The notes beneath the pieces are model-generated. The model was not told where the DNA came from. It did no database searches and saw only the letters and a program-made list of their open reading frames with translations. 62,402 bases of DNA from positions 1-62,402 of the forward strand of contig JACRDK010000013.1 of assembly GCA_016218585.1 (NCBI GenBank), read 5' to 3'. The translations under genes were made by a program, and so were the position numbers. Below, in pieces: positions 3,831-47,571 of this stretch (position 1 is its first letter; every line of letters begins with the position of its first letter). This DNA comes from Candidatus Doudnabacteria bacterium (lineage in GTDB: Bacteria > Patescibacteriota > Doudnabacteria > UBA920).

Positions 3831-3916
3831 ACAGATGAACAGATTTACAGATAACTACAGATTTTAGTATCCGTAGGTATCTGTAGATTAGAATAAATCT
3901 GTAAATCTGAATAACT
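3831..3916. repeat. Word-repeat hairpin spacer (ACAGAT x4, then ATCTGT x3)
   Basis: Direct copies of acagat are followed by inverted copies atctgta in the topA/capA spacer. Confidence 0.8.
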
Positions 3917-3973
3917 GTTGGTGAGTTTAACCATAAAAAAAAGATTTGTCAAACCCTGCTGGTTATTTTTTGT

Positions 3974-5311: not shown

Positions 5312-6409
5312 TTACCTGCTTAAAATGTATTGTTGTCCCCCCATATTCCTTATCTTCCCTTTCATTTCCAAAAATGTCAAGGCGGTAATGGCCATGCTTG
5401 TGGTTAGTCCTGACTGTTTGATTAAATTATTTATAGAAATGGGTTCGTAATTAATTAACTTGAGAAGGACGGTTTCTTCCGCGCTGTCGCCAAAAAGAGT
5501 TTGCGTTTGTTGCTGAACTGGCAGGGTTTTTAGATTTAAATCATCCAAAATGTCTGCTGCTGTTGTGGCGGGCTTGGCTCCCATTTTCAGCAGGTTATTT
5601 GGCCCCTGGCTTTGCGGAGAATAAATTGGCCCGGGCACTGCATAGACTGTGCGATTCTGGTCTAGCGCGTGATTGGCGGTAATTAGAGTGCCGCTTTGCA
5701 AATCACATTCCACAACCAATGTCGCCACCGACAGTCCGGAAATAATCCGGTTTCTGGCGACAAAATTTTGTTTAAAGTTTGGCGTGCCGATTGGATATTC
5801 CGAAAGCAGCGCTCCTCCGGCATCAATAATTTGCCTGGCCAGCAGCGCGTGGTGTTTGGGATACAGACTTTTTTCGTCCAGTCCTCCGCCAAGCACGGCA
5901 ATGGTGCGGCGATTTTTCTTTACTGCAATTTCGTGCGCGGCAGAATCTACGCCAAAAGCCATACCGGAAACGATTATCGCCCCGGCGTCAACTAAAGGCT
6001 CTACTAATTGGGGGATTACAGTTCGCCCGTAATTGGTAATTTTTCTGGTTCCAACTACTGCCAGGTCCAGCTCTTCAGGGCTATTCATTGAACCTTTATA
6101 GTAGAGTAGTGGCGGGCTTTTTGGAATTTCCAAAAGCAGCTTGGGGTAGTTTGCATCTTTCTGGCTTAAGAGTTTTATGCCCTCGGCTTTTAATCTATCC
6201 GCCTCTTCTTTTAAATTTATTTTTGGCCGCAAGGACGTAAAAGCCAGAATGGCTGCGCTGTCCACCCCGGTTTTTAGCAGCTCTGCTTGCGGCGCTTCAA
6301 AGGCATCTTTATAAGTAGAGAATTGTTTTGAAAGTTGCTCGAGCCGGGCAGGGCCTAATTGCGGAGTTAAATTAAGCCCGTGTAAATATAAGGAATCTTC
6401 AAAAATCAT
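5312..6409 (-). CDS. dprA: DNA-processing protein DprA (Smf)
   Basis: 365 aa. Rossmann-like core (VVGTRKITNYG, SGMAFGVDSAAH, RNRIISGLS, AVPGPI) plus a C-terminal winged-helix-like tail. Confidence 0.9.
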   Translation of the reverse strand: MIFEDSLYLHGLNLTPQLGPARLEQLSKQFSTYKDAFEAPQAELLKTGVDSAAILAFTSLRPKINLKEEADRLKAEGIKLLSQKDANYPKLLLEIPKSPPLLYYKGSMNSPEELDLAVVGTRKITNYGRTVIPQLVEPLVDAGAIIVSGMAFGVDSAAHEIAVKKNRRTIAVLGGGLDEKSLYPKHHALLARQIIDAGGALLSEYPIGTPNFKQNFVARNRIISGLSVATLVVECDLQSGTLITANHALDQNRTVYAVPGPIYSPQSQGPNNLLKMGAKPATTAADILDDLNLKTLPVQQQTQTLFGDSAEETVLLKLINYEPISINNLIKQSGLTTSMAITALTFLEMKGKIRNMGGQQYILSR

Positions 6410-7401: not shown

Positions 7402-8784
7402 TTAGGCCTTGTCCTTGCCTTTAAGTTTTAAAGTAATAGGAGTTCCCCAAAAATCCAAGTCTTTAATAATGCCGTTTTCCAGGAACTTTCTAAATTGCAT
7501 TGAAATTGCCGCCGGGTGATTAACCAAAAGTTCAAACATGGGCGGGTTGGTGGCAATTTGGCGCAAACCGGTGACTTTTGGCTTTTTTTGATCGCGCAAT
7601 AATTTGGGCGGGTTGATTTTCATTTTTTTCGCCAGAAAAGCGGTTAGAGTTTCCTGGTCAATTTCTTTATGGCGGGCTTCAAAAATCGGCTTTATAGCCG
7701 CAAGCGCTTCGTCGAGTCCTTCTCCGGTAACCGCTGAGACAAAGAATGCCGGGCACATCCAGAGAAAGGAAAAATGGTGGGAAATATAATCGCGCAGAGT
7801 TTTGTATTCGTCATCAGTCTCGCCGCGCCCGTCCCATTTGCCGCCTTTTTTCCCGCGGTTGTCTTTGGTGTAGGCGTCCATTTTGTTTACTAAAATAATG
7901 CAGCCTTTTTCCATGGCAAAAATTTCATTGGCCACGCGCTGGTCCTGTTTGGTTATTTCTTCATTGGCATCAATAACAAAAAAACAAATATCCGACCGGC
8001 GGATGGCTTTAAATGTTTGAAAGCCGCTAAAAACATCAGGCTGCGGCTGGCGGTGTTCTTTTTTCTTTAGACCGGCAGTATCAATAAAAATATAATTTTC
8101 TCCGCCGATTTCCAGCTGGCTGTCTATGGCGGTGCGGGTAGTGCCCGGAATAGGGGAGACAACCACGCGCTCTTCTTTTAAGATGGCGTTAAAAATACTG
8201 CTCTTGCCGACGTTAGGTTTCCCGACAATGCTTACGGCAATGCCTTTTTTTTCTTCGGTTTTTTTATCCGCCAAACCTAATTTTTTTAGAGTGTCGGTAA
8301 CTTCTTCCAAAAAGTCTCCCAAGCCCAAGCCGGTGAGAGAGGAAACAGTAAAGACATTTTTTATGCCAAGCTTTTGGAACTCTGCTTTTTTGGCTTCGTG
8401 GATTCTGGCTGAGTCCAGTTTGTTAATTACCAGAAGCAATGGTTTTTTGGTGTTGCGGAATTTTTTTAAGCTGGTTTGGTCAATGGCCGCCAGCGGTTCT
8501 TTGCCGTCCACCACAAAAGCAATAATGTCCGCTTCCTGCACGGCCACGTCTATTTGTTTGAGCAGGCTAAGTTCCAGCTGGTCGCCGCTGCCGGCGGAGA
8601 GTCCGGCGGTGTCTACTAAAGTAAAATCAACGCCGCTCCAGGTGGTGTCGATGTATTGGCGGTCGCGCGTGGTTCCGGCAATATCAGAAGTTACCGCCAG
8701 CGGTTTGCCGGCAATTTTGTTCATAAACGTAGATTTTCCGGCATTCGGCTGTCCGACAATGGCTACAAGTGGCAAGTTATTCAT
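7402..8784 (-). CDS. der: Ribosome-associated GTPase Der (EngA)
   Basis: 460 aa with two tandem GTPase domains (GQPNAGKST, GKPNVGKSS; DTAG twice; NKLD/NKMD) and a KH-like C-terminus. Confidence 0.95.
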   Translation of the reverse strand: MNNLPLVAIVGQPNAGKSTFMNKIAGKPLAVTSDIAGTTRDRQYIDTTWSGVDFTLVDTAGLSAGSGDQLELSLLKQIDVAVQEADIIAFVVDGKEPLAAIDQTSLKKFRNTKKPLLLVINKLDSARIHEAKKAEFQKLGIKNVFTVSSLTGLGLGDFLEEVTDTLKKLGLADKKTEEKKGIAVSIVGKPNVGKSSIFNAILKEERVVVSPIPGTTRTAIDSQLEIGGENYIFIDTAGLKKKEHRQPQPDVFSGFQTFKAIRRSDICFFVIDANEEITKQDQRVANEIFAMEKGCIILVNKMDAYTKDNRGKKGGKWDGRGETDDEYKTLRDYISHHFSFLWMCPAFFVSAVTGEGLDEALAAIKPIFEARHKEIDQETLTAFLAKKMKINPPKLLRDQKKPKVTGLRQIATNPPMFELLVNHPAAISMQFRKFLENGIIKDLDFWGTPITLKLKGKDKA

Positions 8785-8808: not shown

Positions 8809-10245
8809 TTACTTATTTTGACCTAAAATCACGATAATATCAACCTTGCTCTTATCTATTTTTACTCCCGGCGGCGGCAGGCTTACTTCGGTGGCATTGA
8901 GGTTGTTGGCAATGTAGTCGGCAGTTGCCGGCTTAGGATTGAGCACATAGTAAACATTTTTGTTTAAAGGCTGTCCGCCATAGCCCACTTCCCACACAGT
9001 TAGTCCCGCTTCTTTCAGTTTTTTGTCGGCTTGCTGGTAGCTGGTGCGGTCGTTGCTGGAAGTGCCAAGCCAAATGGTACTTTTTTCTTCATAAAGTTTT
9101 CCAATAGAGAAAACATTTTTAAAGAAGTTTTTTATGTCGTCCGGAGTTTTGCCGTCGCAGGGCATTAACACGTAAGCGCCGTTGCTTTCCAAAATTTTGG
9201 GACAGATTAAAGAAGTTGAAGGGTCTAAGCTTACAGAAACAAAAGTTTTTATGTCATTTTGTTTAACTAAATTAAACAAGCGAAAAATTTCTCCGGGGCT
9301 GATGTTGGTGTGAAAATGGTTGGCAAAAGTATCGAGCAGGGAATTGATGGTTCCGGCATTAGAAATCAAATTCAAGCTTAAAACTTTTTCTTTGAAAGCG
9401 GAAATAATTTTTTGCTGGCGGGCGGAGCGAGCAAAGTCTGAACCCTCGGGCCCGGCGGCATGGCGCGAGCGGGCAAATTGCAGGGCGCGGGTGCCGCCCA
9501 TATGCTCAAAACCTTCGGTAAAAGTAATGGCCGGCAAGTAGCCAATGCCGCTGTCGGGGTAAGTGTAATCGGTAAAGGTTCGGTCAATATGAACATCAAC
9601 TCCGCCGACCTGGTTAATAGCTTTTTCAAAACCGGCAAAATCTATTACTGCAAAGTAGGGGATTTTTTGTCCGGAAATATTTTCAACCACTTGTCTGGCC
9701 CATTTGCCTGCTTCGTTCCAGTCTTTATTTTTATTAAAGCCTAAAGCGAAAGATGCGTTTATTTTTTGGTCGCCTGCGTTCTCCGGCAGGGTTACCAAAT
9801 AGTCGCGGGGAATGGCCACTAAAGAGACTTGTCCGATATCAGGGCGAATTTCCGCCAGAATCATAGTGTCTGATAGGTATGGGCCGTCGTGGCCTTCGCC
9901 ACCAATGCCAAGCAGAAGAATATTAATCTGCCCCATATCTTCCCCGACCAGCTTAACATTATCTCCGCCGCCCCTTATGGCATCGCGAATTTTAGCAAAG
10001 AAGCTGGTTTTGGTGCCGACAAAGATTTTATCGGTTAAATTGGCCGCTCTAATGGCAACAATGCCGCCAAGCAAAATTATTACCATCACAATCAGGATGG
10101 TAAATTTTTTTAGCCACGATCCGCGGCGCTTTTCTTTTTTAACCGTCAGCAAGTTTACTTTTTCCGCAACTGGTGGAGTATCCGACACGGTAACTTGGGG
10201 AGTTTTTGGCGTAAATCCGCGGTTAGCTGAATCTAAATTTTTCAT
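8809..10245 (-). CDS. LytR-CpsA-Psr (LCP) family protein
   Basis: 478 aa with an N-terminal TM and an LCP core (ILLLGIGGEGHDGPYLSDTMILAEI, IPRDY). Confidence 0.85.
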   Translation of the reverse strand: MKNLDSANRGFTPKTPQVTVSDTPPVAEKVNLLTVKKEKRRGSWLKKFTILIVMVIILLGGIVAIRAANLTDKIFVGTKTSFFAKIRDAIRGGGDNVKLVGEDMGQINILLLGIGGEGHDGPYLSDTMILAEIRPDIGQVSLVAIPRDYLVTLPENAGDQKINASFALGFNKNKDWNEAGKWARQVVENISGQKIPYFAVIDFAGFEKAINQVGGVDVHIDRTFTDYTYPDSGIGYLPAITFTEGFEHMGGTRALQFARSRHAAGPEGSDFARSARQQKIISAFKEKVLSLNLISNAGTINSLLDTFANHFHTNISPGEIFRLFNLVKQNDIKTFVSVSLDPSTSLICPKILESNGAYVLMPCDGKTPDDIKNFFKNVFSIGKLYEEKSTIWLGTSSNDRTSYQQADKKLKEAGLTVWEVGYGGQPLNKNVYYVLNPKPATADYIANNLNATEVSLPPPGVKIDKSKVDIIVILGQNK

Positions 10246-10886: not shown

Positions 10887-11489
10887 ATGGAAAACGACCA
10901 AAACAAAAATGAAAACAACAAGGATAGCGATTCATCTTTAAAGTCTGTCGGAGCGTTTATTTGGGATTTAATTAAAATCTTAATAATCGCTTTAGTTATT
11001 ATTGTTCCGTTCCGGATGTTTATTGCCGAACCTTTCGTGGTTTCGGGTTCTTCAATGCAGCCGAATTTTCATAACCATGACTATTTAATTATTGACAGGC
11101 TGTCCTATTTAAGAAGCCAGCCTCAGCGCGGAGATGTTATTGTTTTAAAATTTCCCAAAGACACTTCGCAGTTTTTTATAAAAAGAATTATTGGCCTGCC
11201 TGGAGAAACAGTTAAGGTTGGGCAGGGTTTCGTGACTATTTATAACACCGAGCACCCGGAAGGAATGCGGATTACCGAAAGTTATTTGCCAAATCAGTCG
11301 GAAACTTTTGGGAAAACAGATCCTGTAGTGCTTGGCAGCGATGAATACTTTGTGTTGGGGGACAATAGAACCGCCAGTTCCGATTCCCGAGTTTGGGGCA
11401 TATTGCCAAAAGACGACATTGTGGGAAAAGTTTGGGCCAGGGTTTATCCTCCTAGTTCCGCCGGATTTTTTCAAACACCGAGTTATTAA
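10887..11489 (+). CDS. lepB: Signal peptidase I
   Basis: 200 aa with a TM, catalytic Ser box (SGSSMQPN), Lys box (FIKRIIGLPGE) and GDNRTASSDSR. Confidence 0.92.
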   Translation: MENDQNKNENNKDSDSSLKSVGAFIWDLIKILIIALVIIVPFRMFIAEPFVVSGSSMQPNFHNHDYLIIDRLSYLRSQPQRGDVIVLKFPKDTSQFFIKRIIGLPGETVKVGQGFVTIYNTEHPEGMRITESYLPNQSETFGKTDPVVLGSDEYFVLGDNRTASSDSRVWGILPKDDIVGKVWARVYPPSSAGFFQTPSY

Positions 11490-14349: not shown

Positions 14350-15600
14350 ATGAGCAAAGAACAATACATTGTCGGTTTAGATATAGGAACAGCCTGTGTA
14401 CGCGTGGTGCAAGCAAAACTTGACCAGGCCACAGGCAGTTTTAGTGTTATTGGGGCCAGTGAAGTGGCTTCTTCAGGCATGCGCCGCGGCGTAGTGGTTG
14501 ATATTGAGGAATCAGTTTCCGCAATTTCCAGCGCTTTGGAAAAAGTAGAAAGAATGACCGGCGTGCCCGTGGCTTCGGCCAATATTTCCGTTGGCGGAAA
14601 TCACATTTCTTCAATTTCCTCCCATGGCGTGATTGCCGTTTCCAGGGCAGACGGTGAAATTACCGAGAATGATATTATTCGCTGTATTGATGCCAGCCAG
14701 GCAATTTCCATTCCGCAAAATAAGGAAGTTTTACATGTGTTTCCAAAAACTTTTACGCTGGACGGACAAACCGGAATTAAAGATCCTCTCGGAATGACAG
14801 GGATTAGGCTGGAAGTGGACACCATTATTGTTCAGGCTGGGTTGCCGTTTGTGAAAAATCTTTCCCGTTCAGTAATGCAGGCGGGTTTGGAAATTGATGA
14901 TATGGTTTTAGCTCCCTGCGCCGCCGCTGAGAGTGTATTGAACAAGCGCCAAAAAGATTTGGGTGTTTGTTTGGTAGACTTAGGAGCCGGCACAACTTCA
15001 ATTGCCGTTTATGAGGAAGGCGATCTTCTTCATACCGTGGTTTTGCCGATTGGCAGTATGCATATTACTAACGACATTGCCATTGGCTTAAGGTGCAGCA
15101 TAGAAACCGCAGAAAAGGTTAAATTGCTTTATGGACACAGCGACCCGAAAGCCATAGATAAAGACGAAGAAATAGATTTGTCTAAACTAGACCCGAGCGA
15201 AGATCAGGCAACTTCCCGCGCTTACGTTGCGGAAATTATTGAAGCCCGTTTGGAAGAAATTTTTCGCCATGTTAACAGTGAACTTAAAAAAATTCAGCGC
15301 GACGGCAAGTTGCCATCCGGCATTGTCTTAACCGGCGGGGGATCGAAACTTCCGGGAACTGTGGAATTTGCAAAAAAACATTTGCACTTACCAACAGTAA
15401 TGGGACGGCCTCAGAATGTTAGCACTGTAATTGACCGCGTAGACGATCCAAATTTTGCTACCGCAGTTGGGCTTATTCTTTGGGGAGGCAAATTCTCCAG
15501 CGGTGGAGGAAATGCCCAGCTAGGAAGCATGGTAAAAAGCTTTATGAGTAACGAAAATGTGGCTAAATTAAGAAAATGGCTTAAATCATTTTTACCTTAG
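14350..15600 (+). CDS. ftsA: Cell division protein FtsA
   Basis: 416 aa with an actin-like ATPase fold (VGLDIGT, DLGAGTT, LTGGGS) and a C-terminal amphipathic tail. Confidence 0.95.
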   Translation: MSKEQYIVGLDIGTACVRVVQAKLDQATGSFSVIGASEVASSGMRRGVVVDIEESVSAISSALEKVERMTGVPVASANISVGGNHISSISSHGVIAVSRADGEITENDIIRCIDASQAISIPQNKEVLHVFPKTFTLDGQTGIKDPLGMTGIRLEVDTIIVQAGLPFVKNLSRSVMQAGLEIDDMVLAPCAAAESVLNKRQKDLGVCLVDLGAGTTSIAVYEEGDLLHTVVLPIGSMHITNDIAIGLRCSIETAEKVKLLYGHSDPKAIDKDEEIDLSKLDPSEDQATSRAYVAEIIEARLEEIFRHVNSELKKIQRDGKLPSGIVLTGGGSKLPGTVEFAKKHLHLPTVMGRPQNVSTVIDRVDDPNFATAVGLILWGGKFSSGGGNAQLGSMVKSFMSNENVAKLRKWLKSFLP

Positions 15601-15631
15601 TCCTTCTATAATTATAATTGTGTTTTTTATT

Positions 15632-15657
15632 AAAACCCCTTAAGTTAGGGGTTTTTT
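15632..15657 (+). terminator. Rho-independent terminator after ftsA
   Basis: aaaacccct-taagtt-aggggtttttt. Confidence 0.85.
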
Positions 15658-15669
15658 AATTAAAAAGGC

Positions 15670-15698
15670 TTGCCAAAATGCAATTTTTTTGGTACTAT
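15670..15698 (+). promoter_or_regulatory. Sigma-70-like promoter (TTGCCA-17-TACTAT) for island gene A
   Basis: Hexamers with an exact 17-nt spacer, in AT-rich host-like sequence about 100 nt upstream of 15802. Confidence 0.55.
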
Positions 15699-15801
15699 AT
15701 AAAGTCAAAATTAGCTCTTAGTTTTGTTTCGGGTTTTAATTATTAAAACCATTAACAAGGCTAAAAGTCTTGAGTCCAAAATTTCGTAGGAGGAATTTGA
15801 G

Positions 15802-16698
15802 ATGAGAAACCTGATGTTTGTCGCCATTGTGTTGATGGTGATGTTGCCTGTTTCTAACTGCTCGGCTCAGGAAAATGGAGCCGAACAGTTTGTGATGTTT
15901 GTGGCAGAACAAAACGGCGGCCTGATGGCCATGATGCAGGACAACGGGTATAGCCCGTGGCTCTACAGCCAGTTGAGCCGCGAGCCTGGGGGAGAGTTAC
16001 TATCGTGCGAGGAACAAAGCTTCGAGATTCGAAGCATTAGTCCCGGACAAAAGCTTTTCATGCAGAAGGGCGCCAAGGTGGACCGTGGACGTCTGTCTCA
16101 CTGCCTCGCAGTGGAGAACAGGCTGTTTGGCAAAACCAAAGGAGCGGTTTTACCCGCAACCTTGGCATCGAATTCTCCTGCGCCTAGCGTGCAGCCGCCT
16201 GTGTCCGCATCACCTGGGCCTTGCGAGGAAACGAAGGCGAAGGTTGTGTTCCTTGAGGTGTCCATTGACAACATCAACCAACAGCTCAAGGAGGCTCTGG
16301 CCGAGAACGACAAGTTAAAAGCTGAGCTTGGTAAAGCCAAGCAGCGGCAGAGTCATGGTGCGGAATCTGCAACTGATGGCCAAACCTTTTTTGCGGGTTG
16401 TGTGATAGCTGCAACTTTTTTCGGTCTGGTTGCTGTTGCGATTTCTGGGGTAAGCCTTTGGCGCAAGCAGCATTTTAGAACGTCGTGGGCAGCCGGAATA
16501 GAATACTGGCTCTTCGGTCCAGTATGCAGGCATTCGACCAAAGTAAAAAAGTGGCTGAGGTTGAGTTTTCAAATCAGCCCAGATTTACCCAGCACGACGG
16601 GACGAACTTTACTAGAGACCCATTCGGTCGGCAGACTTGCGGCCGAATGTGGTGCCTCGGTTTCTCCGGAACAGCCAACTGAAAAGGTGGCTGTGTGA
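15802..16698 (+). CDS. Bitopic envelope protein A: signal peptide, ecto-domain, Pro-rich linker, coiled coil, TM, cytoplasmic tail
   Basis: 298 aa. Strong SD (aggagg, 8 nt before ATG) and signal peptide MRNLMFVAIVLMVMLPVSNCSA. TM FFAGCVIAATFFGLVAVAISGV. G+C-richer than its neighbours. I recognise no family. Confidence 0.7.
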   Translation: MRNLMFVAIVLMVMLPVSNCSAQENGAEQFVMFVAEQNGGLMAMMQDNGYSPWLYSQLSREPGGELLSCEEQSFEIRSISPGQKLFMQKGAKVDRGRLSHCLAVENRLFGKTKGAVLPATLASNSPAPSVQPPVSASPGPCEETKAKVVFLEVSIDNINQQLKEALAENDKLKAELGKAKQRQSHGAESATDGQTFFAGCVIAATFFGLVAVAISGVSLWRKQHFRTSWAAGIEYWLFGPVCRHSTKVKKWLRLSFQISPDLPSTTGRTLLETHSVGRLAAECGASVSPEQPTEKVAV

Positions 16699-16706
16699 AT
16701 AGTTTC

Positions 16707-16799
16707 AACATCTAGCAGACTTGATTTAATGCACTGCCTCGCGTGGCCCTGCATTTAACAGGGTCTTGCCGATGGCATCAGAACAATCTTGTCTCAACA
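16707..16799 (+). repeat. 93-nt 3-prime-flank repeat, copy 1
   Basis: Differs from 19769-19860 by 2 substitutions and 1 indel. It contains the hairpin ggccctg-catttaa-cagggtc. Confidence 0.9.
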
Positions 16800-16884
16800 T
16801 ATGCAATGGTGGTTCTTTTGGAATTTTTTCCTAGGGAGCCGCTTTTTGTTTATAAAAAAATAACCCACAAATAATTTGGGGTAT

Positions 16885-16929
16885 AAAAAAAGCGAGGCAG
16901 GAAAAGTCCGGTTGGGACGATTCCTGCCT
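16885..16929 (-). terminator. Rho-independent terminator after the PEP-CTERM gene
   Basis: The minus strand reads aggcaggaa..ttcctgcct followed by cgcttttttt. Confidence 0.7.
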
Positions 16930-16951
16930 GCTGTTGCTGTAGTCCTGTGGA

Positions 16952-18349
16952 CTACTGAAGTTGATTCTGCCGGCGTTTGCGGGCAAGCGCGAGGGCACAG
17001 AGCCCGGCGCCGAGCATCGCGAGTGTGGCCGGCTCGGGGACTTCGGATTTCGCGGTGTCGAAATTGGCTCTTGCCGATACCGTATCGGATGTCCAATTGC
17101 TTACCGTAAACTTGATCGTCGTGAGCGCGCTAGCTAGTTGCATAGGCGCAAAAGTGTTGTCAGCGGCCGCGTTGCAGCTGGTGCTTCCGCCTGCCGGTCC
17201 GGTACAACCGAGTCCGGAAATATTCGCTCCCAAATCTACTGCACCCGGATTGCCAACGGTAGTCATGCTGCCCTTTGTTACTGAGGGTACGTGAGAACCG
17301 AAGGAACTCCCGGTTACCGCCATTGAGGCGTGAAGCCCGGTGATGTCCTTCGGGTCAAAGTACAGGAGGATGGTCAAGATGTTGTCGACCGGAGCGCCGC
17401 TTGCGTTGAAGCTGGCAATGGAGACGGACACGTTGCTGAAATCTGCTCCACCGAATATCCCGGTAATCGTAACGAGTCCTCCAACGAGGGTGTCGTTGAT
17501 TATCCAATTCCCCGGGGTTCCAGTAACGTTGACATTCTGAGCCGGCCCGCCGTTCTGAGAGAACTGCACGAGAGGGTTCAGAGGTGTCGCTGTCGCCGGG
17601 ACGGCTATGGCCGTAATGGCGAGGACAATCATGAGAGCACAGGCGCATTGCTTGATGGAAAGCTTCGGCATTTTGTGCCGGTTCTTCCAGAGCAACAGGC
17701 CCAGAAGGCCGAGGCCCATCAGCGCGTAGCTGTTGGGTTCAGGGACAGGGGACCCACCGAGCTGAAAGTCGGTGAACGTTGCCTGCTGCCCTCTGTGATC
17801 AGCGTTGACGCTGCGCAAGCGCAGCAGCAACTGTTCGAACTCGCCGAATGAACCCACGTTGGTCTTGAGGAATGTTCCTTGGGTAAGCACTCCATCAAAC
17901 ACGTGGTCGACGCTGCCGTCGGCGTAGAGCTTGGTTGAGACTGTGTGGGGTGTTCCCAAAGCTCGTGGCGTGAGGTCGAAGTATACAACGTTCTCAACGG
18001 CTGGGCCGTTGTCGTAACGTTCGTAGCTAATGGCCGAACAGCACGCAAATGCGCTGCCGTCCTGGATCCGCGGGTTGTGGACGTTCGAGATGTTCTGCTG
18101 GAACATATCGATGTTCGCACCCGGGTTGTCCAGGTAAGAGAAGGAAGCCATGGTAAACATGGTGTTGAGCACCAGGTCCACCTCGGTGTTGCTGTTCTGG
18201 GTCAGGGTGATCGACCCATCTAGATTTACGACGGCGATTCCGTCGCCGACCACATCCCAGCTTTGCCCTTTCCAGGCAATCGTGGTCGCACTTGCCACCA
18301 TACAGATGGCGAATGCCAAAATCAAAAAAACGCTCGCGCGTTTTGTCAT
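16952..18349 (-). CDS. Tandem PEP-CTERM pre-protein fusion (two signal-peptide plus PEP-CTERM modules in one ORF)
   Basis: 465 aa with SD aggagg. Module 1 is aa 1-226 and ends VPEPNSYALMGLGLLGLLLWKNRHK. Module 2 starts at Met227 (17671) with its own signal peptide and ends VPEPATLAMLGAGLCALALARKRRQ. No stop codon separates them. Confidence 0.8.
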   Translation of the reverse strand: MTKRASVFLILAFAICMVASATTIAWKGQSWDVVGDGIAVVNLDGSITLTQNSNTEVDLVLNTMFTMASFSYLDNPGANIDMFQQNISNVHNPRIQDGSAFACCSAISYERYDNGPAVENVVYFDLTPRALGTPHTVSTKLYADGSVDHVFDGVLTQGTFLKTNVGSFGEFEQLLLRLRSVNADHRGQQATFTDFQLGGSPVPEPNSYALMGLGLLGLLLWKNRHKMPKLSIKQCACALMIVLAITAIAVPATATPLNPLVQFSQNGGPAQNVNVTGTPGNWIINDTLVGGLVTITGIFGGADFSNVSVSIASFNASGAPVDNILTILLYFDPKDITGLHASMAVTGSSFGSHVPSVTKGSMTTVGNPGAVDLGANISGLGCTGPAGGSTSCNAAADNTFAPMQLASALTTIKFTVSNWTSDTVSARANFDTAKSEVPEPATLAMLGAGLCALALARKRRQNQLQ

Positions 18350-18456
18350 GCGTATTCCTCCTGAGGAATTTACTAATAGCCCCTCTAAGGGTTCTTAGCG
18401 TTTCATAAGTGTAATGAAATAGTCGGGAAAAGTCAAGCCCTTTTATAGGCTTAGTC

Positions 18457-18485
18457 TTGCAATTGTTTTATATTTATGTTATAGT
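18457..18485 (+). promoter_or_regulatory. Sigma-70-like promoter (TTGCAA-17-TATAGT) for island gene B
   Basis: Exact 17-nt spacer; about 170-nt AT-rich leader before 18658. Confidence 0.55.
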
Positions 18486-18657
18486 AATGTCCTGAAGTTA
18501 AATAAATTTTCTTGTGTTGTTTTAAGCCCAAAATTTTTTTTGGACAAAAACAAGACCAGAAAAACCACTTCTTCTTTGAAGCGGCCAGTTTTGGTTTACT
18601 ATATTTTGTACAATGCGCTACTGGGAAATTTAGCGCAAAGAAAAACTAGTTAGGGGG

Positions 18658-19743
18658 ATGCACAAGATGTTTAAGATGTCACGCCTTGCGGTCGTGTTGA
18701 CCGTATTGGCGAGTTACGCATTTGCGGACGACCGTGTCCGCATTGCTACGGTCGAACTTGGGCCAACACAAGCCTTGGAAAACAATCACCGACACTGGGA
18801 TGAGTTGGGATCGATTGAACACCAAGACGGCAGTCTGTGGAAGCCCTGTGAATACTCCACTGTATCGGACAAGGAGTTTTATGTCCCATTACAGCCTCAG
18901 CGCAACAGAGTTAAGGCTTTGGCGTTGATCGCCGAGTCCAGAAACTGCACTGCGAAACCGATTTCGCCCGTTGCTTTGGCTTCTACGCCACCGGCCAAGC
19001 CGCTCGTTCAAACACAGCCCGCAAAGACCGAGGTTCAGGCCAAGGTTCAGCCGGCTCCGATCCAGGCCAAGTATCAACCGTCCGTGTTGACGCTTACGCC
19101 TCGGGCGAGAGAGACTGCGCTGGAAAAAGAGCTTAGCGCTTACCGCGCTCGGTTGAATTCCGCCGACGACGCTCGGGTTCAGATGATCAGGGCGATGAAG
19201 GATGATCTGGAACAAAACTACATCCGCAAGGATGGAGTTGTTCCAAAAGAACAACACGAACGCGACCTGGCAAAAGCCAGACTCATCGGCACCTGGTCGA
19301 CAGCATCCGTTGGTTTGATCTGCGCGATTTTGGGTTTTTTCGGCAACGAAAGGCTTCGTAACCGGAACATAAGAAAGCGCAGTCGAAAAGCTGGGCATCA
19401 CAATCAAGAAACCAGTCAAGAAGATGGTGTTCTGTTTTTTCTGAAAGAACCTCAAACTGACAATTTCGCTGAGCCGGTGTTCGTTGCGAGGTACGCCAAA
19501 AGCCATCACGACATTCCAGAGCTACCCGATCTGAAATATCGTGGCAATGGTTTTCCTATCACGCCTTCGGACGGACTAACGGCCGTCCAGATGCAACATT
19601 TTGCGTTGCATCGCAAGGTCAGGGCTTGGATGGAAAACAACCCAAGCGTCAACGCTGAAGTCGTTGCCATCAGCGACCAGAACAGTTCCGTCAGAACTCG
19701 TAGTTCCGAAAGGCGCACTGACAAACGCACCGCAATTGCCTAA
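18658..19743 (+). CDS. Bitopic envelope protein B (same architecture as protein A)
   Basis: 361 aa: signal peptide, Pro/Gln-rich linker (PAKPLVQTQPAKTEVQAKVQPAP), coiled coil, TM (WSTASVGLICAILGFF) and a 130-aa tail. The start may instead be ATG 18667 or 18676. Confidence 0.7.
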   Translation: MHKMFKMSRLAVVLTVLASYAFADDRVRIATVELGPTQALENNHRHWDELGSIEHQDGSLWKPCEYSTVSDKEFYVPLQPQRNRVKALALIAESRNCTAKPISPVALASTPPAKPLVQTQPAKTEVQAKVQPAPIQAKYQPSVLTLTPRARETALEKELSAYRARLNSADDARVQMIRAMKDDLEQNYIRKDGVVPKEQHERDLAKARLIGTWSTASVGLICAILGFFGNERLRNRNIRKRSRKAGHHNQETSQEDGVLFFLKEPQTDNFAEPVFVARYAKSHHDIPELPDLKYRGNGFPITPSDGLTAVQMQHFALHRKVRAWMENNPSVNAEVVAISDQNSSVRTRSSERRTDKRTAIA

Positions 19744-19768
19744 AGGTTTAGGCTAACATCAACTGTGT

Positions 19769-19860
19769 AACATCAGCAGACTCGATTTAATGCACTGCCT
19801 CGCTTGGCCCTGCATTTAACAGGGTCTTGCCGATGGCATCAGAACAATCTTGTCTCAACA
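19769..19860 (+). repeat. 93-nt 3-prime-flank repeat, copy 2
   Basis: See 16707-16799. Confidence 0.9.
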
Positions 19861-19968
19861 CAAAGCAATTACTGATCTGTGGTTTATCCATAGGTCGGTT
19901 TTTTGTTGCCAATTTTGTTTTTTGTTAAAAATATGCCATAATAATAAAGTAAAATTAAAATATACATT

Positions 19969-22656
19969 ATGTTTGGAAGGGGATCGAGTCCTGAATTTAA
20001 TAGTATAAATCCGGATTCATACACGACAGACGAAACAAAAAAAGAAAATAAAGAAAAATCAACAGACGGAAATAAAAAAAAGTTACGGGATTTTTTTAAA
20101 CGCAATAAGTCTAAAGAAAAAGAAAAACAACCGGAAAATGAAGCCTCGGCAAATTCAGATTCTGCCGGGGAAGTTTTGGTTGGTGAAATTGTTTCTGACG
20201 ACGAAATTCCACAGTATATAAAAGATGGGGTAAGTAATCCGCAAACAGCACAAGAAGCAGCTTCGGCAATAAATGAAAAATCCGTTTTTGGACAAAAACT
20301 AAAAAAAACCTGGGAAACCTTAAAACCCGTTGTTGCTAGCGCTGCTGCCGGTGCCGCCGTGCGTTCTGCCACCAAGTTTGCTTTAAAGCGCACATTGGAT
20401 TTTGGCACTGTCGGCGCTTCGGCTGGGGCCGGGGCAGTTGTTGGCGGCGGTATGGAATTTTACAAACAGAACAAGGCGGAAAACCGCCGGTTGTTTAACT
20501 TGGAAACTTATAACAAAACGCTGGATGGTTATAAAGAAATGTCGGCATTAGAAAAAGCGGAAAGTTATGTAGCGATTACCGAAGCATTGGAGCAGCGAGG
20601 GCTAGACCGCGGGCAGCATGCCGAGCTCTCCGCCCGGCTCACTACTTTAAAAGTTGCTTTGGAAAATAAAACCGAATGGGAAAGTCTACCCGAGGCCGAA
20701 CGCTTGCTGAAATATATGAAAGCCCGGGAACAAGCCGAAAGGGAAGAGCTGCCCAAGGCGATGAAAAAAGAAGCGGGAAAAATTTTAAAAGATTTATTTA
20801 AAGACAAAAATTTAAATAAGAATTGGAAAAAAATTAGCACCCATACTATAAAAGGTGCCGTTATTGGCGCGGGAGCCGGAGCCTTAGGTGCTTGGGCTTT
20901 TGACCATTTTATTGGCTCTGCTGTAGATTCACATCACAGCGCGCAAGTTGTAGCGGAAAAAGCAGCGGAAGCTGCTAAATCAAACTTGGCGCATCAGGCT
21001 GAGACTGTTGTAAATTTACCCAGCAGCCAGGACACACAGGAACTGCATAAAACAGTTTGGGATACAGCCAAACATTTTTTGGAAAGCCATGGCGTTAAGC
21101 ATCCATCGGTAAAAGATCTTAATGAGGCAATGATTACCATTTGCAAAGAAAATAATATAGAAATAACCGGACACCATCCTGGAGCAGCAGGGGGCACCTG
21201 GTATGAGGGCTTTAATCATGCTCACCAAGAAGGTGCTAATACAATAAAGGATATTAATTTAAAAGATGGAGTTGAATTAAAAGGTTTTGATAAGTTGGGC
21301 GATATTATTGCCAAGGCCGGCGGCACAGTGCCAAGGCCGACAGAAGTTAAGTTGTCCTGGCCGGTGGATTTGCACGGCCTTCACCCTTCTTCTAATGGTC
21401 CAGTTGAAGTAAGTGCTGCCCGCGCGGCAGAGGCTTTGAGCTCACAGGATCAAAGTTTGAGAAAAATAACTTTGATTATTGGAGGCGGTATAGCTGTGGC
21501 CGCTGAGGCAATGCATTATATTAGTTGGCAGAAGAAGCAAAAGGAAAAAAAATCTCTAACTCAAATAGAAAGTAATACTTCTCCGCAAGAGCCAACGCAG
21601 CCTTCTCCCGCTCAAGAGAGCGTTCCGCCCAAAGAACAAACGCAAACAAACAAACCAGGTGTTTGGGATAAAATAAATTCTAAAATAAAGCGAGTCCCGG
21701 TTGAAAAGACCCTGGACGCTTTAAAGTTGGAATCAGAAAAAAAATTGGAAGCTGCAAAAAAAGAAGCGGAAAATTTGTATCTTAAAGAAAACGAAAGAAT
21801 GCAGGCTTTGGAAAAATTTGTATATTCCTACCAGGCGCAAACCGAACCAAAAGCGGAGAAGGAAGAGCAGTATGAAAAGCTAAGGGACAAGTTGGGTAAA
21901 ATTTATAACAAAGAAGCCCAAATGCGCCTAATGGAAAATATGTCTTTGGACGAACAAAAAGATTTTACGGAATTTTGGAAAAATTTTACATTGGATCTAC
22001 AGGATCGTTATCAAAAGGCTGAAGTACGTGCCGCGCAAATATGGAGTCAAGAAGCTGGGAGTATAAAAGAAAATGAACCTAAGCCGGATGCGGGGGGCGA
22101 CGAAGCTCCAAAGAAAGCAAAGACTGCGCCTGCAAACAAACCGGGAGCGCTGCCTAAAAATAATGAAAATAAGCCTGCTCAAAAACCCGGAGAACAGGTA
22201 AAACCAGCCTCGCTTGGTTCGGAAGTAGGGAAGTCTAACGCTAAAGAAAAAGCAGACAGAAAAACAGAACTTTTACAAGAAATGAAAGATTTGGGCTTAA
22301 TGAGACCTGATGCTACAAAAAAGAATTTTAGTAATGAGGAGAGGATAGCTCTTAATAAATTTGTTTATTTAATGCAGGAAAAAGATACAAGCTTGCTTCA
22401 GAGTGTGTATGGTGAAGCGGCATTTGAGAAACGGAAAGTCTTAACCTCTGCCTTTAGAGGTTTAAATCAAAATAAGCCAGAGCTATTAATGAAATTTTGC
22501 AGGGACGCTTTGGCTTTAGCCGATCAAAACAAAGATAACGGTGAGGGCATTAAAAAAATGCTGACAGAGATGAAGGCGATAAACGCTGAGATTGCTAAAA
22601 TAGTAGATGAGGAAATTAAAAAACATAAAGCCCCTGTTAAAAAGAGAAAAAAATAA
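19969..22656 (+). CDS. Large Lys/Glu-rich membrane-associated protein, unknown family
   Basis: 895 aa uninterrupted ORF. It has Gly/Ala-rich hydrophobic segments (GASAGAGAVVGGG, GAVIGAGAGALGAWAF, ITLIIGGGIAVAAEA) and long coiled-coil-like K/E stretches. Confidence 0.7.
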   Translation: MFGRGSSPEFNSINPDSYTTDETKKENKEKSTDGNKKKLRDFFKRNKSKEKEKQPENEASANSDSAGEVLVGEIVSDDEIPQYIKDGVSNPQTAQEAASAINEKSVFGQKLKKTWETLKPVVASAAAGAAVRSATKFALKRTLDFGTVGASAGAGAVVGGGMEFYKQNKAENRRLFNLETYNKTLDGYKEMSALEKAESYVAITEALEQRGLDRGQHAELSARLTTLKVALENKTEWESLPEAERLLKYMKAREQAEREELPKAMKKEAGKILKDLFKDKNLNKNWKKISTHTIKGAVIGAGAGALGAWAFDHFIGSAVDSHHSAQVVAEKAAEAAKSNLAHQAETVVNLPSSQDTQELHKTVWDTAKHFLESHGVKHPSVKDLNEAMITICKENNIEITGHHPGAAGGTWYEGFNHAHQEGANTIKDINLKDGVELKGFDKLGDIIAKAGGTVPRPTEVKLSWPVDLHGLHPSSNGPVEVSAARAAEALSSQDQSLRKITLIIGGGIAVAAEAMHYISWQKKQKEKKSLTQIESNTSPQEPTQPSPAQESVPPKEQTQTNKPGVWDKINSKIKRVPVEKTLDALKLESEKKLEAAKKEAENLYLKENERMQALEKFVYSYQAQTEPKAEKEEQYEKLRDKLGKIYNKEAQMRLMENMSLDEQKDFTEFWKNFTLDLQDRYQKAEVRAAQIWSQEAGSIKENEPKPDAGGDEAPKKAKTAPANKPGALPKNNENKPAQKPGEQVKPASLGSEVGKSNAKEKADRKTELLQEMKDLGLMRPDATKKNFSNEERIALNKFVYLMQEKDTSLLQSVYGEAAFEKRKVLTSAFRGLNQNKPELLMKFCRDALALADQNKDNGEGIKKMLTEMKAINAEIAKIVDEEIKKHKAPVKKRKK

Positions 22657-22660
22657 TTAT

Positions 22661-22978
22661 ATGTTAAACCAAGAAACATTATTTCAAAATGGCGGGGAAG
22701 AGCTTTTAAAAGAATTGGGGCTTGCAGAAGTGGATCCTGAGCAAAAGCTTAAATTGGTAGAAACCCTGGCGCAGAGGTTTGAGAGCGTAACTTTTAAAAC
22801 AACCCTTGGCCTAATGAACGACGCCCAAAGGCTGGAGTATCTGGAGGCAGTTAAAGATCCGGATAAAAACGGAGCAAAAATTGAGGAGCTGGCCTCTCAG
22901 GTAGAAGGTTTGGCCGAGGAAATTGAAGCTGCCTGGCTGTTTGAGCTTGAGTCTTTAAAGCATATTTTAAAAAAATAG
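22661..22978 (+). CDS. Small acidic helical protein, unknown function
   Basis: ATG at 22661, 5 nt after the preceding stop; 105 aa. The longer track ORF (22607) overlaps the upstream gene. Confidence 0.6.
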   Translation: MLNQETLFQNGGEELLKELGLAEVDPEQKLKLVETLAQRFESVTFKTTLGLMNDAQRLEYLEAVKDPDKNGAKIEELASQVEGLAEEIEAAWLFELESLKHILKK

Positions 22979-23157
22979 CTTAAACTCATAGCCGGTTAGG
23001 TTGTTTTTTTGCACAAATTTCCGATTGTGCTATAATTTATGGGTCATTTAAATCGCCAAAATAGCGGTCAAAAAACAAAAATCAAACGCGAAAAACAGCC
23101 AAGTTGTTAAGCGCTTGATTTTATTTTTTTAATCGATTATTCTGAACATAGAACAAC

Positions 23158-24351
23158 ATGAAAAAAACTATGGAAGTTAAACCAAAAATTGAAACGTTTG
23201 CCAGAATTAAGGTCTTAGGTATTGGCGGCTCGGGTACTAACGCCGTTAACCGTATGACGCAGCTTGGCATTCGTGGAGTAGAATTCATCGCCGTAAATAC
23301 CGATGCGCAGGCTTTGCATAATAACCAAGCTGACCGCAAAGTTCACATTGGCAAAAGCGCGACCAAAGGTTTGGGCAGCGGAATGAATCCGGAATTAGGC
23401 AGGCAAGCTGCTGAAGAGAGCGTGGAAGAACTGGAAGAAGTTATCGACAACGCCGATATGGTTTTTATAACCTGCGGGCTTGGCGGCGGCACCGGTTCAG
23501 GCGCAGCGCCGATTGTTGCGGAGATCGCCAAAAATAAAGGCGTGCTCACCGTGGGTGTTGTAACCAAACCGTTTACTTTTGAAGGAAGCAAAAGAAAAGA
23601 AGTTGCCGAGAATGCTTACGACAATTTAAAAGATAAAGTAGACGCAATAATTTCCATTCACAACGATCGCATATTGCAAATTATAGACAAGAAGACTTCT
23701 TTGGTAGACGCCTTTAAAACTGTTGACGAAGTTTTACGCCAGGGTATTGCCGGTATCTCCGATCTCATTACCACCCATGGTATTGTTAACGCAGACTTTG
23801 CCGACGTGAAATCTATTATGCAAGATGCCGGAACCGCGTTAATGGGTATTGGAAGAGCCAGCGGCGAGACTAGAGCGCAAGACGCGGCCAGAGCGGCAAT
23901 TAATTCTCCGCTTCTCGAAATGACTATCGACGGCGCCAAGGGAGTGTTGTTCAACATTACCGGCGGCAGCTCTTTGGGTATGTTTGAAATAGACGAAGCT
24001 GCTAAAGTAATTACAAAGAGCATTGATCCTGATGCCAAGGTAAAGTTCGGCGCGGTGATAGACGAAGCAATGGGCGACGAAGTAAGAATTACAGTTATTG
24101 CTACCGGCTTTGACGAATCCAGCAAGCGCAATAACGCGGTGTCTATGGTTTTAAATGAAGAGCCAAAGAAACCGAAGTTTACCGAGTCGAGAATTTTCCC
24201 AAACCCGATGCCGGCTCCGGAAGTAAGAAAGCCGATGTTTAATCCAAAACCTGCTCCGCCAATCGACAACATTGAAGTGAGCGCAGATGAAAGCCAAACC
24301 CCGGAAGACGAACTTGATATCCCGGCTTTCATTCGCAAGAAAATGAAATAA
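23158..24351 (+). CDS. ftsZ: Cell division protein FtsZ
   Basis: 397 aa with the tubulin signature GGGTGSGAAP and the conserved C-terminal peptide DIPAFIRKK. Confidence 0.97.
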   Translation: MKKTMEVKPKIETFARIKVLGIGGSGTNAVNRMTQLGIRGVEFIAVNTDAQALHNNQADRKVHIGKSATKGLGSGMNPELGRQAAEESVEELEEVIDNADMVFITCGLGGGTGSGAAPIVAEIAKNKGVLTVGVVTKPFTFEGSKRKEVAENAYDNLKDKVDAIISIHNDRILQIIDKKTSLVDAFKTVDEVLRQGIAGISDLITTHGIVNADFADVKSIMQDAGTALMGIGRASGETRAQDAARAAINSPLLEMTIDGAKGVLFNITGGSSLGMFEIDEAAKVITKSIDPDAKVKFGAVIDEAMGDEVRITVIATGFDESSKRNNAVSMVLNEEPKKPKFTESRIFPNPMPAPEVRKPMFNPKPAPPIDNIEVSADESQTPEDELDIPAFIRKKMK

Positions 24352-25257: not shown

Positions 25258-25404
25258 ATTAGTGACGTAAGGCGAGCAGTCTTGCTTGCAAGGCAAGCGA
25301 GCTTAAACTGCGAAAAGAAGTTTGCTCCTTGGGGGCCCCGAGATATCTTTATTTATCCACTGGTGAATTTTAAATTTTGTGATACAATTATTTTTACAAC
25401 TCAT

Positions 25405-25560
25405 CTGCGATTAGTTGCCCCGAGAACGGGGTTTGGTTTAGGAAAGTCGGGTTTAATTCCCGCGCTGTGCCGCAACTGTAAAGCCTAAAAAATTTAGGAC
25501 AAGCCAGGCACTACCAGCTAATTGTACGACGGTCTCTTTCCCCGAGCAGGGAACAGGGAT
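25405..25560 (+). promoter_or_regulatory. Cobalamin (B12) riboswitch
   Basis: B12-box core aggaaagtcgggtttaattcccgcgctgtgccgcaactgtaa, then aagccaggcac. This fits the GGGAA..GGTG.AA.TCC..CCCGC.ACTGTAA..GCCA pattern. It lies directly upstream of 25593. Confidence 0.75.
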
Positions 25561-47560: not shown

Positions 47561-47571
47561 TCTCTTCTCCG

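Follow-up and report, generated by a model that had tools for sequence, protein, structure and literature searches.

A probable in-frame fusion of two PEP-CTERM pre-protein genes in a genome of apparent CPR type

Introduction

The PEP-CTERM/exosortase (EpsH, Xrt) system was reported only from bacteria that possess EPS genes in addition to an outer membrane (Haft 2006, PMC1569441). PEP-CTERM signals are described as tags that are found strictly at the C-terminus of proteins from outer-membrane bacteria. An exosortase-type sorting signal in the middle of a protein is found in the midcut-by-XrtH proteins of NCBIfam, which belong to a different exosortase system. Internal signal peptides are also involved in the maturation of polyproteins. 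Thony-Meyer et al. reportedly described in 1991 that FbcH of Bradyrhizobium japonicum is a cytochrome b-c1 polyprotein, which is split at an internal signal peptide. In flavivirus-type polyproteins, internal signal sequences are processed by the host signal peptidase.

Here, we analyzed an open reading frame (ORF) with two head-to-tail PEP-CTERM pre-proteins from a contig of 62,402 nt, whereby this whole stretch is referred to as the window. In contrast to the proteins of the PEP-CTERM/exosortase system from EPS-producing diderms, the window protein has one of its signals in an internal position, it is encoded by a CPR-like host without an exosortase within the 62-kb window, and it does not exceed the cut-off of any specific NCBIfam PEP-CTERM family. 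It shares the mid-protein sorting signal with the midcut-by-XrtH proteins but differs from them in that the internal signal leads into a complete second pre-protein, and the midcut-by-XrtH model was not among the matches of the 465-aa protein at E ≤ 1. The order of a transmembrane helix followed by an internal signal peptide, with a presumed cut by signal peptidase I that yields two proteins, is the same as that ascribed to FbcH; FbcH, however, consists of unrelated proteins, has no sorting signal, and is a fixed ancient fusion, whereas the junction described here is modular and recurrent. Flavivirus polyproteins resemble the design in their alternating transmembrane helices and internal signals and in the luminal or external domains that signal peptidase sets free, but they are processed at the eukaryotic ER with viral proteases acting on the cytosolic side and show no homology.

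Results

The ORF is located on the minus strand at positions 16952–18349 and comprises 465 codons plus a stop codon without interruption. It consists of two units, in each of which a signal peptide is followed by an ectodomain of the beta-sandwich type and a PEP-CTERM tail. Unit 1 (aa 1–226) begins with the signal peptide MTKRASVFLILAFAICMVASA (aa 1–21; 18287–18349, minus strand), for which cleavage between A-S-A and T was predicted from the sequence, and ends in VPEPNSYALMGLGLLGLLLWKNRHK. Unit 2 (aa 227–465) begins at Met227 with the internal signal peptide MPKLSIKQCACALMIVLAITAIAVPATA (aa 227–254; 17588–17671, minus strand), with predicted cleavage between A-T-A and T, and ends in VPEPATLAMLGAGLCALALARKRRQNQLQ. 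By inspection, n-, h-, and c-regions with these two cleavage sites precede each of the ectodomains. Lys226 and Met227 (17669–17671) are encoded by adjacent codons, without a linker between the units. When both units were scanned separately, the internal PEP-CTERM signal (aa 202–226; 17672–17746, minus strand), which is made up of VPEP, a Gly/Leu-rich helix, and the tail WKNRHK, yielded 29.0 bits with PF07589 and 22.7 bits with TIGR02595, and the terminal signal (aa 437–465; 16955–17041, minus strand) yielded 30.7 and 27.4 bits, respectively. The curated cut-offs are 20.7 bits for PF07589 and 16 bits for TIGR02595, and the tripartite signal of P-E-P, hydrophobic helix, and basic cluster is above cut-off in both units. 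An extreme C-terminal position applies to signal 2 but not to signal 1, after which 239 residues follow. The ORF, the Met227 junction, and the scores of both tails thus bear out the preliminary description of the locus, in which two complete PEP-CTERM pre-proteins had been read in a single frame. No other PEP-CTERM-like tail was detected by regular expression in all six frames of the 62 kb. None of the specific NCBIfam PEP-CTERM families (floc_PepA NF033554, THxN NF038125, NF038129, XDP1 NF041927, and others) reached its cut-off; the best scores were 56.7 (cut-off 85), 56.6 (80), and 53.8 bits (65) and came mainly from the tails.

The fused gene is preceded by a promoter-like site, TTGACT-17-TACACT (18408–18436, minus strand), and by a Shine-Dalgarno site, AGGAGG (18357–18362, minus strand), 7 nt upstream of the start codon, with a duplex energy of −10.3 kcal/mol. 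A GC-rich hairpin followed by U7 (16884–16932, minus strand; z = −7.6) is the predicted intrinsic terminator and the sole terminator-like signal of the unit. The promoter-like site lies inside the divergent intergenic region shared with the ORF at 18658–19743 (plus strand), the conserved neighbour of the slot, which is transcribed divergently and encodes a bitopic surface protein with 361 aa; no family match was obtained for this protein, and a word-based homologue search with it recovered only the protein itself. The two genes are flanked by an 86-nt direct repeat (16714–16799 and 19775–19860, both plus strand; copies 98% identical), and the Logan contigs break exactly there. The G+C content of the fused ORF is 56–57% compared to about 42% for the window.

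Ectodomain 1 (aa 22–201; 17747–18286, minus strand) is predicted to form a concanavalin-A-like/GH16-like beta jelly roll (AF2 pLDDT 89), and its Foldseek matches in the PDB are lichenases, XETs, and legume lectins with TM scores of 0.45–0.56. At the position of the GH16 motif ExDxxE it reads E56-V-D58-L-V-L (EVDLVL), and a homologue (P0003) has ELDLE. Since the second Glu of the motif is absent, ectodomain 1 is probably a glycan binder for which a lectin-like role is likelier than catalysis. Ectodomain 2 (aa 255–436; 17042–17587, minus strand) is modelled as a beta sandwich (AF2 pLDDT 76) with weak Foldseek matches and a weak assignment as CBM-like; its conserved motif is ISGLGC..P.GGSTSCNA. 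Stand-alone homologues of 223–230 aa were found for both units, namely P0002 (57% identity), a gene of contig L008 at 7998–8690 (54%), and P0003 (46%) for unit 1, and P0004 (45%) and P0005 (40%) for unit 2. In the alignments, Met227 coincides with the initiator Met and Lys226 with the C-termini of these unfused homologues. A word-based homologue search with the whole 465-aa protein (P0001) as query gave no matches, nor did a metagenome scan with this protein alone, and its 90% cluster contained just one fragment of 52 aa, which appeared unrelated. A metagenome scan with the unit-1 alignment yielded one stand-alone homologue on an Acidobacteria-like contig of 55% G+C (L009), which is uninformative on the junction.

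The host looks like an ultra-small CPR-type groundwater bacterium. The window encodes LytR-CpsA-Psr and ComEC and most of its genes have no Shine-Dalgarno site, which agrees with the CPR-like host suggested beforehand; outer-membrane genes were not seen in the window. No polytopic ORF of the 62-kb window matched exosortase or archaeosortase models (including PF09721 and TIGR04178), so that the lack of an exosortase reported earlier for these 62 kb was reproduced. PEP-CTERM cannot, however, be regarded as a one-off oddity in CPR, as had been implied, since the 17-kb contig L008 from a Saccharibacteria MAG carries three PEP-CTERM genes, one of them being the unit 1 homologue mentioned above. No exosortase was found among the ORFs scanned in L008. 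A CPBP pair at 46886–48525 was considered as a surrogate sorting enzyme and rejected: it matched only the generic PF02517 (66.5 bits) and stayed below the thresholds of the specialised models, namely Mrt_core (24 bits, cut-off 100), MrtJ (30.5 bits, cut-off 75), and TIGR03008 pepcterm_CAAX (14.7 bits, cut-off 81). A literature search found no papers that link exosortase with Patescibacteria. The window also encodes a type I signal peptidase (S26; 10887–11489, plus strand; PF10502 146.9 bits), which is a candidate enzyme for both A-x-A cuts.

The sole unfused homologous locus that was found (L006) has two separate PEP-CTERM genes in different frames, which overlap by ATGA. It has the promoter, the 5′ leader, the terminator, the neighbour gene, and the second gene in common with the window: the TTGAC and TACACT hexamers as well as CAGGAGGAA from the Shine-Dalgarno region are kept, the neighbour shares 39% identity (E 1e-16) with the protein encoded at 18658–19743, and the second gene (gene B) shares 40% identity with unit 2. 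Signal peptide 1 and the first gene of L006 share the leader MTKR..VF..L..ASA, but the ectodomain of that first gene differs from the one in unit 1, i.e., between the two loci leader and tail are fixed and ectodomain 1 is swapped. A recent foreign island as the cause of the high G+C content of the fused ORF is unsupported, given that promoter, leader, and terminator are kept in L006 and that a relative with about 90% identity occurs elsewhere.

Junctions of the same design were detected 59 further times, in 24 of 83 related protein clusters. All 59 consist of a positive loop followed by a hydrophobic segment and a small-x-small site, whereby a strict AxA is present in 50 of them. The loop has a median length of 6 aa (range 1–46) in the comparison set, and a Met occurs in 8 of the 60 loops when the window’s own, which is one of the eight, is counted. 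That these ORFs are genuine is supported by two of the fusions: P0008 reads through under table 11, and P0019 has the same sequence on all 12 contigs that carry it in JGI, ENA, and NCBI. The window junction shows the pattern of the class, with an internal PEP-CTERM, a short net-positive loop, a hydrophobic segment with small-x-small, and a further domain with its own tail.

Discussion

These data make it probable that the two PEP-CTERM genes of an operon were truly fused in frame in a lineage-specific event, and that the resulting ORF occupies a conserved slot for surface-protein expression in what looks like a CPR bacterium. It is regarded as a fusion rather than the outcome of a simple stop substitution because L006 keeps the elements of the slot with two ATGA-overlapping genes. 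The ancestral locus would have consisted of the promoter, the Shine-Dalgarno site, a gene A with leader, variable ectodomain, and PEP-CTERM tail, a gene B of the unit-2 family that overlapped gene A by ATGA, and the terminator. As the frames of the two overlapping L006 genes differ, the most likely route to the fusion is an insertion or deletion that altered the frame within the short basic tail of the first gene; a small indel at this place would have joined the frames seamlessly, and Met227 would be the old start codon. The preliminary description had offered a lost stop codon as one of two explanations. This proposal appears too simple; a substitution of the TAA-to-AAA type is possible but disfavoured, because the overlap in L006 lies in another frame. 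The ATG of the window is 2 nt nearer to the PEP codons than that of L006, which equals the shift required for joining both frames, although this is a weak argument, since fused/unfused pairs always differ in frame and the tails have diverged. Recoding or an alternative genetic code is irrelevant, as there is no stop between the units in any code.

The junction is made up of the PEP helix, a basic loop with a charge of +5 (10 aa with a charge of +4 by automated segmentation), and the signal-peptide helix that ends in A-T-A, and we infer from this order that the resulting hairpin keeps both ectodomains outside. Sec would insert the chain, with signal peptide 1 placing ectodomain 1 outside and PEP-CTERM helix 1 passing back into the membrane. 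The basic loop KNRHKMPKLSIK would remain cytoplasmic because the positive-inside rule predicts so. The h-region of signal peptide 2 would then pass outward and export ectodomain 2, and PEP-CTERM helix 2 would anchor the end of the chain. If the signal peptidase I encoded at 10887–11489 cuts after ASA21 and ATA254, the cell would obtain two lectin-like ectodomains in a 1:1 ratio, separate from each other and both anchored in the membrane, whereby unit 1 would keep its hairpin of two helices unless it were cut at PEP by an enzyme of the exosortase type. Thus, it appears likely that one chain gives rise to two anchored surface proteins via signal peptidase I, and the polyprotein cut twice, which was the other explanation put forward initially, is the better supported of the two, with the cleavage itself deduced from the sequence. 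Since topology and cleavage sites would equal those of two separate pre-proteins, the fusion may have been nearly neutral, and this would account for the recurrence of this type of junction in many bacteria.

It could also be that ribosomes initiate at Met227, in addition to or instead of the gene start, in which case unit 2 would arise as a normal pre-protein and the fusion would do no more than lengthen unit 1. In favour of this, Met227 would be the old start codon and stands in front of a signal peptide with complete n/h/c regions, and some other fusions have kept an in-frame Shine-Dalgarno site, such as P0041 with AAA GGT AGG AGG TTA AAA ATG. We nevertheless consider such a second start rather unlikely for the window gene. 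At Met227 the Shine-Dalgarno duplex reaches −3.3 kcal/mol compared to −10.3 kcal/mol at the gene start, and 33% of the internal ATGs are equally good, which means that there is no Shine-Dalgarno site. Of the 22 bases upstream of Met227, 12 are G+C, which is more than at any of the 31 ORF starts (median 5), and hence there is no AT-rich leader. Part of the AUG itself is base-paired within a small hairpin, whereby RNA structure at the junction is not significant (z = −1.6), and neither an internal promoter nor a terminator was matched near 17600–17760. In addition, 52 of the 60 junction loops do not contain a Met, and those proteins must therefore work as polyproteins.

A further explanation, which we regard as unlikely, is that the fusion is real but a recent, damaging accident in a gene that is being lost, with unit 2 being misexported or left uncleaved, or the product being degraded, and with PEP-CTERM being functionless where no exosortase exists. 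The fused state was seen in one genome only, there is no exosortase within 62 kb, and Met227 is without start signals; a degenerate precedent is Chlorobium tepidum, which has PEP-CTERM proteins without EpsH (Haft 2006, PMC1569441). On the other hand, both units are intact across 465 codons without frameshift or stop, both signal peptides, the A-x-A sites, and the PEP motifs are canonical, and the predicted topology of the fused product is free of contradictions. Across the three loci that are CPR or CPR-like (window, L006, and L008), each of the seven tails has retained VPEP. The change in unit 2 relative to a relative with about 90% identity from another groundwater study (run X2) is also mostly synonymous: over aa 232–300, there are 15 listed changes in 13 codons, of which 9 are synonymous and 4 lead to amino acid changes, and aa 232–254 of signal peptide 2 are identical. 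Unit 2 could accordingly be under purifying selection, but this signal could stem from an unfused relative, as the X2 contigs end at 17656, 13 nt before the junction, even at 80% likeness.

It is very unlikely that the fused frame is an assembly or sequencing indel artefact that conceals two genes, for example by A4 having been called in place of A3 in CACAAAATG (17669–17680): although depth is just about 8.7×, both assemblies were built from reads of the same run, and L006 shows that two states can be separated by a frame difference of 1–2 nt, the 3065-nt Logan contig L001 (depth 8.65; flanking contigs 7.88 and 8.2) equals 16770–19834 with zero differences, so that two different assemblers agree exactly with no variant reported, short-read platforms are not prone to errors in a homopolymer of four bases, the A3 version would run gene 1 on for 14 codons to a TGA, with an overlap with gene 2, and give it an atypically long, non-basic tail ending in HKCRSFPSSNAPVLS, whereas the fused reading stops unit 1 exactly where its homologues end, and junctions fused in this manner occur frequently and reproducibly in other sequences.

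Because the same merger recurs in many bacteria, the in-frame fusion suggests a tolerated, self-cutting polyprotein design. A broader reading, which we put forward tentatively and hold to be possible rather than probable, is that the hairpin of PEP helix, basic loop, and signal peptide serves as a general, portable punctuation by which bacteria join complete exported proteins within a single ORF. Signal peptidase I, joined by an exosortase in hosts that have one, would cut the chain on the outer side of the membrane. Under this reading, the window gene would represent a recently formed two-unit case, found alongside its unfused relative, in a single-membrane CPR cell, in which the tail may be read by an unrecognised sorting enzyme or may act as a plain anchor. 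A full-text literature search found no papers that describe such secretory PEP-CTERM polyproteins.

In the window, a signal that is otherwise described as a C-terminal tag of outer-membrane bacteria is situated mid-protein and without a linker in a genome of apparent CPR type, a type that lacks an outer membrane, and the case sharpens the question of whether PEP-CTERM is read in CPR bacteria at all, and by which enzyme. Together with L006, the window provides a natural before-and-after pair for how secretory polyproteins arise, and its gene allows testing whether bacteria cut an internal signal peptide that follows a membrane helix. If the junction is self-cutting, it could be used as a compact tool to display several surface proteins at a fixed ratio. 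If the punctuation reading is true, PEP-CTERM biology would extend past the diderms, and a class of bacterial secretory polyproteins would have been described.

The Fused ORF and Its Two Units

The ORF at 16952-18349 (minus strand) runs uninterrupted for 465 codons. The preliminary description had read it as two complete PEP-CTERM pre-proteins joined head to tail, and this is borne out by the open frame and by both tails lying above the profile cut-offs: when the units were scanned separately, PF07589 (curated threshold 20.7 bits) gave 29.0 bits for the unit 1 tail and 30.7 bits for the unit 2 tail, and TIGR02595 (threshold 16 bits) gave 22.7 and 27.4 bits, respectively. Unit 1 (aa 1-226, minus strand) opens with the signal peptide MTKRASVFLILAFAICMVASA/T, continues with an ectodomain, and closes with VPEPNSYALMGLGLLGLLLWKNRHK. 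Unit 2 (aa 227-465, minus strand) repeats this layout: a complete signal peptide of its own, MPKLSIKQCACALMIVLAITAIAVPATA/T, precedes another ectodomain, and the unit closes with VPEPATLAMLGAGLCALALARKRRQNQLQ. The translated ORF also agrees with the earlier placement of Met227 (17669-17671) as the codon immediately after unit 1, opening the second signal peptide. A six-frame regex search found no further PEP-CTERM-like tails in the 62 kb besides these two. The fused gene has a G+C content of 56-57% compared to ~42% for the window and sits within a 7.5-kb stretch between ftsA (14350-15600) and ftsZ (23158-24351). These two genes are usually adjacent, whereas here the region 15600-23158 places four family-less ORFs between them, one of which encodes a Lys/Glu-rich 895-aa protein (19969-22656). 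Elsewhere in the window, two riboswitches score above the Rfam gathering threshold, namely a cobalamin riboswitch (25395-25536) about 1.4 kb upstream of a class II-like ribonucleotide reductase gene (26969-29620) and a SAM riboswitch (54636-54739) preceding the ORF 54754-56070.

Stand-Alone Homologues and an Unfused Counterpart

When 1.84 billion representative proteins were searched exhaustively with HMMER, stand-alone homologues of unit 1 (P0002, 57%, 223 aa; P0003, 46%) and of unit 2 (P0004, 45%, 226 aa; P0005, 40%, 227 aa) were recovered. Lys226 lines up with the C-termini of the former and Met227 with the initiator Met of the latter, and the alignment reveals no former intergenic residues at the junction. 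The 3970-nt Logan contig L006 is, as judged from its sequence, the same slot as in the window: its neighbour protein shares 39% identity (E 1e-16) with the product of window ORF 18658-19743, the terminator region is conserved, and the divergent intergenic DNA contains long conserved runs, among them TTGAC-17-TACACT (18436-18408, picked by the promoter scan) and CAGGAGGAA...ATGAC(R)AAACGC. L006 encodes two separate PEP-CTERM genes, for P0085 (251 aa) and then P0005. The P0005 start lies within the stop of the preceding gene (…GCC GCA TGA / ATG AGC…), and the Lys-Arg-Arg codons AAAAGGAGA double as its Shine-Dalgarno (SD) site. When anchored on the PEP codons, the window ATG lies 2 nt nearer than the L006 ATG. 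Since this difference is the frame change required to join both genes, it is consistent with, though no proof of, a small indel that joined the two frames. The likeness of P0085 to unit 1 is limited to leader and tail; the first genes (L006 2305-3060, window 17672-18349) have a common leader (MTKR..VF..L..ASA) and PEP tail around unrelated ectodomains, a pattern that fits the exchange of ectodomain cassettes while leader and anchor stay fixed.

Predicted Topology and Expression

The chain is ordered as signal peptide 1, ectodomain 1, PEP helix 1, loop, signal peptide 2 h-region, ectodomain 2, PEP helix 2, and tail. The junction loop KNRHKMPKLSIK carries five Lys/Arg and one His, the h-region of signal peptide 2 ends in A-T-A, and the C-terminal tail reads RKRRQNQLQ. 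By the positive-inside rule, the chain would follow an in-out-in-out-in path with both ectodomains outside, and its topology would be that of two separate pre-proteins. The window also contains a gene for a type I signal peptidase (10887-11489), and signal peptidase I would presumably cut the polyprotein. The model of ectodomain 1 (pLDDT 89) is a concanavalin-A-like/GH16-like jelly roll with TM scores of 0.45-0.56 to lichenases, xyloglucan transglycosylases, and legume lectins. Its GH16 motif lacks the second Glu (EVDLVL), which makes lectin-like function more probable than catalysis. Ectodomain 2 is modeled as a beta sandwich (pLDDT 76) weakly resembling carbohydrate-binding modules.

The expression signals of the fused unit comprise a single promoter-like site, a strong SD at the gene start (AGGAGG, -10.3 kcal/mol), and a single strong terminator (z = -7.6). 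Most genes in the window lack an SD and have AT-rich leaders (median 5 G+C per 22 nt). Met227 has no SD, its duplex of -3.3 kcal/mol being equalled by a third of internal ATGs, and the 22 nt upstream contain 12 G+C, above every one of the 31 ORF starts. Thus, unit 2 is most likely translated within the long chain, and internal initiation as its main route is rather unlikely. In the comparison of the 31 ORF starts of the window (e.g., 15802, 18349, and 48525 vs. 23158 and 26969), a perfect AGGAGG was present in three genes, 15802-16698 and 16952-18349 (both G+C-rich surface-protein genes) and the CPBP gene 47572-48525, whereas housekeeping genes mostly have no SD and AT-rich leaders; two styles of translation start seem to coexist in this genome.

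Assembly and a Relative from a Second Study

A second groundwater study (run X2) contains a ~90%-identical relative. Its fragments cover aa 232-300 as well as the start of the gene and the DNA upstream of it, and its contig stops 13 nt short of the junction. Within aa 232-300, 15 listed substitutions in 13 codons lead to 4 residue changes, and the second signal peptide has none; that the fusion is a decaying accident is unlikely. An indel artefact is very unlikely, as the Logan contig L001 (3065 nt, same run) equals window 16770-19834 with zero differences at a depth of 8.65, in line with the flanking contigs (7.88 and 8.2). The Logan contig breaks fall at a direct repeat of 86 nt, whose two copies (16714-16799 and 19775-19860) are 98% identical and lie on either side of the fused gene and its neighbour. 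The repeat pair encloses a 3061-nt unit containing the fused gene, and each copy directly follows the stop codon of an ORF for a bitopic surface protein (15802-16698 and 18658-19743). Fold prediction gave no significant structure for the repeat (z = -1.6), and it is not conserved in L006.

Recurrence of the Junction Design

Among 83 HMMER matches, 24 protein clusters carry internal PEP-CTERM signals, which adds 59 further junctions. Each of them leads into a short loop of net positive charge (median 6 aa, range 1-46) and then a hydrophobic segment, with a small-x-small site at 59/59 and a strict AxA at 50. Met occurs in only 8 of the 60 junction loops (the window's own counted). Unit numbers reach ten in P0008 (2500 aa), and its ORF is open throughout under table 11 in an NCBI MAG; the five-unit P0019, from a diderm context, has identical coding on 12 contigs from JGI, ENA, and NCBI. 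These multi-unit ORFs are real. In the two-unit fusion P0041, the linker G-R-R-L-K corresponds to a translated former SD site (AGG AGG) plus spacer (DNA GGT AGG AGG TTA AAA ATG); the joining of neighbouring operon genes is therefore a route taken repeatedly. The P0041 gene (L010 3628-5019, on a 42% G+C contig) adjoins a Kiwa (KwaA/KwaB) defence pair. A full-text literature search found no paper describing such polyproteins.

PEP-CTERM Proteins in CPR Bacteria

Haft et al. (2006, PMC1569441) report PEP-CTERM only from bacteria that possess an outer membrane as well as EPS genes, and mention one genome that encodes two such proteins but lacks EpsH. The host of the window looks like a CPR bacterium, and locus L008 belongs to a Saccharibacteria MAG. 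In L008, pilB/pilC and uvrA flank a G+C-rich island that harbours three separate PEP-CTERM genes. One of these shares 54% identity with unit 1, and 350 nt of spacer lie behind its stop codon. The [VI]PEP motif is kept in 7/7 tails across the window, L006, and L008, which argues for some recognition or recent shared ancestry. Within the L008 island (3900-4800, 5700-6100, and 9330-9400), AT-rich "TTCTAATTTACCTAATT(A/G)TTCTAAAAA" boxes repeatedly precede genes, and G+C-rich non-coding stretches follow repeated "AAAAAATGGTG(C/T)TG(G/A)ATAAA" boxes; the cassettes may thus have regulatory or RNA elements in common.

The polytopic ORFs of the 62-kb window gave no match to exosortase/archaeosortase models, in keeping with the preliminary description, which had seen no exosortase here. 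The CPBP pair (46886-48525) was rejected as a stand-in sorting enzyme, the similarity being generic. The ORF 52968-53756 (minus strand; 262 aa, five predicted helices, no Pfam/NCBIfam match) encodes the sole polytopic window protein without an assignment, which makes it the one candidate within the window for a membrane enzyme of unrecognised type. No paper linking exosortase to Patescibacteria was found in the literature search.

Overall, it is probable that a PEP-CTERM operon of two genes, located in a conserved surface-protein slot of a CPR bacterium, underwent a real, seamless fusion into a two-unit secretory polyprotein, which signal peptidase I probably splits. The fused gene would unite two little-described phenomena, and its unfused counterpart in L006 comes alongside.
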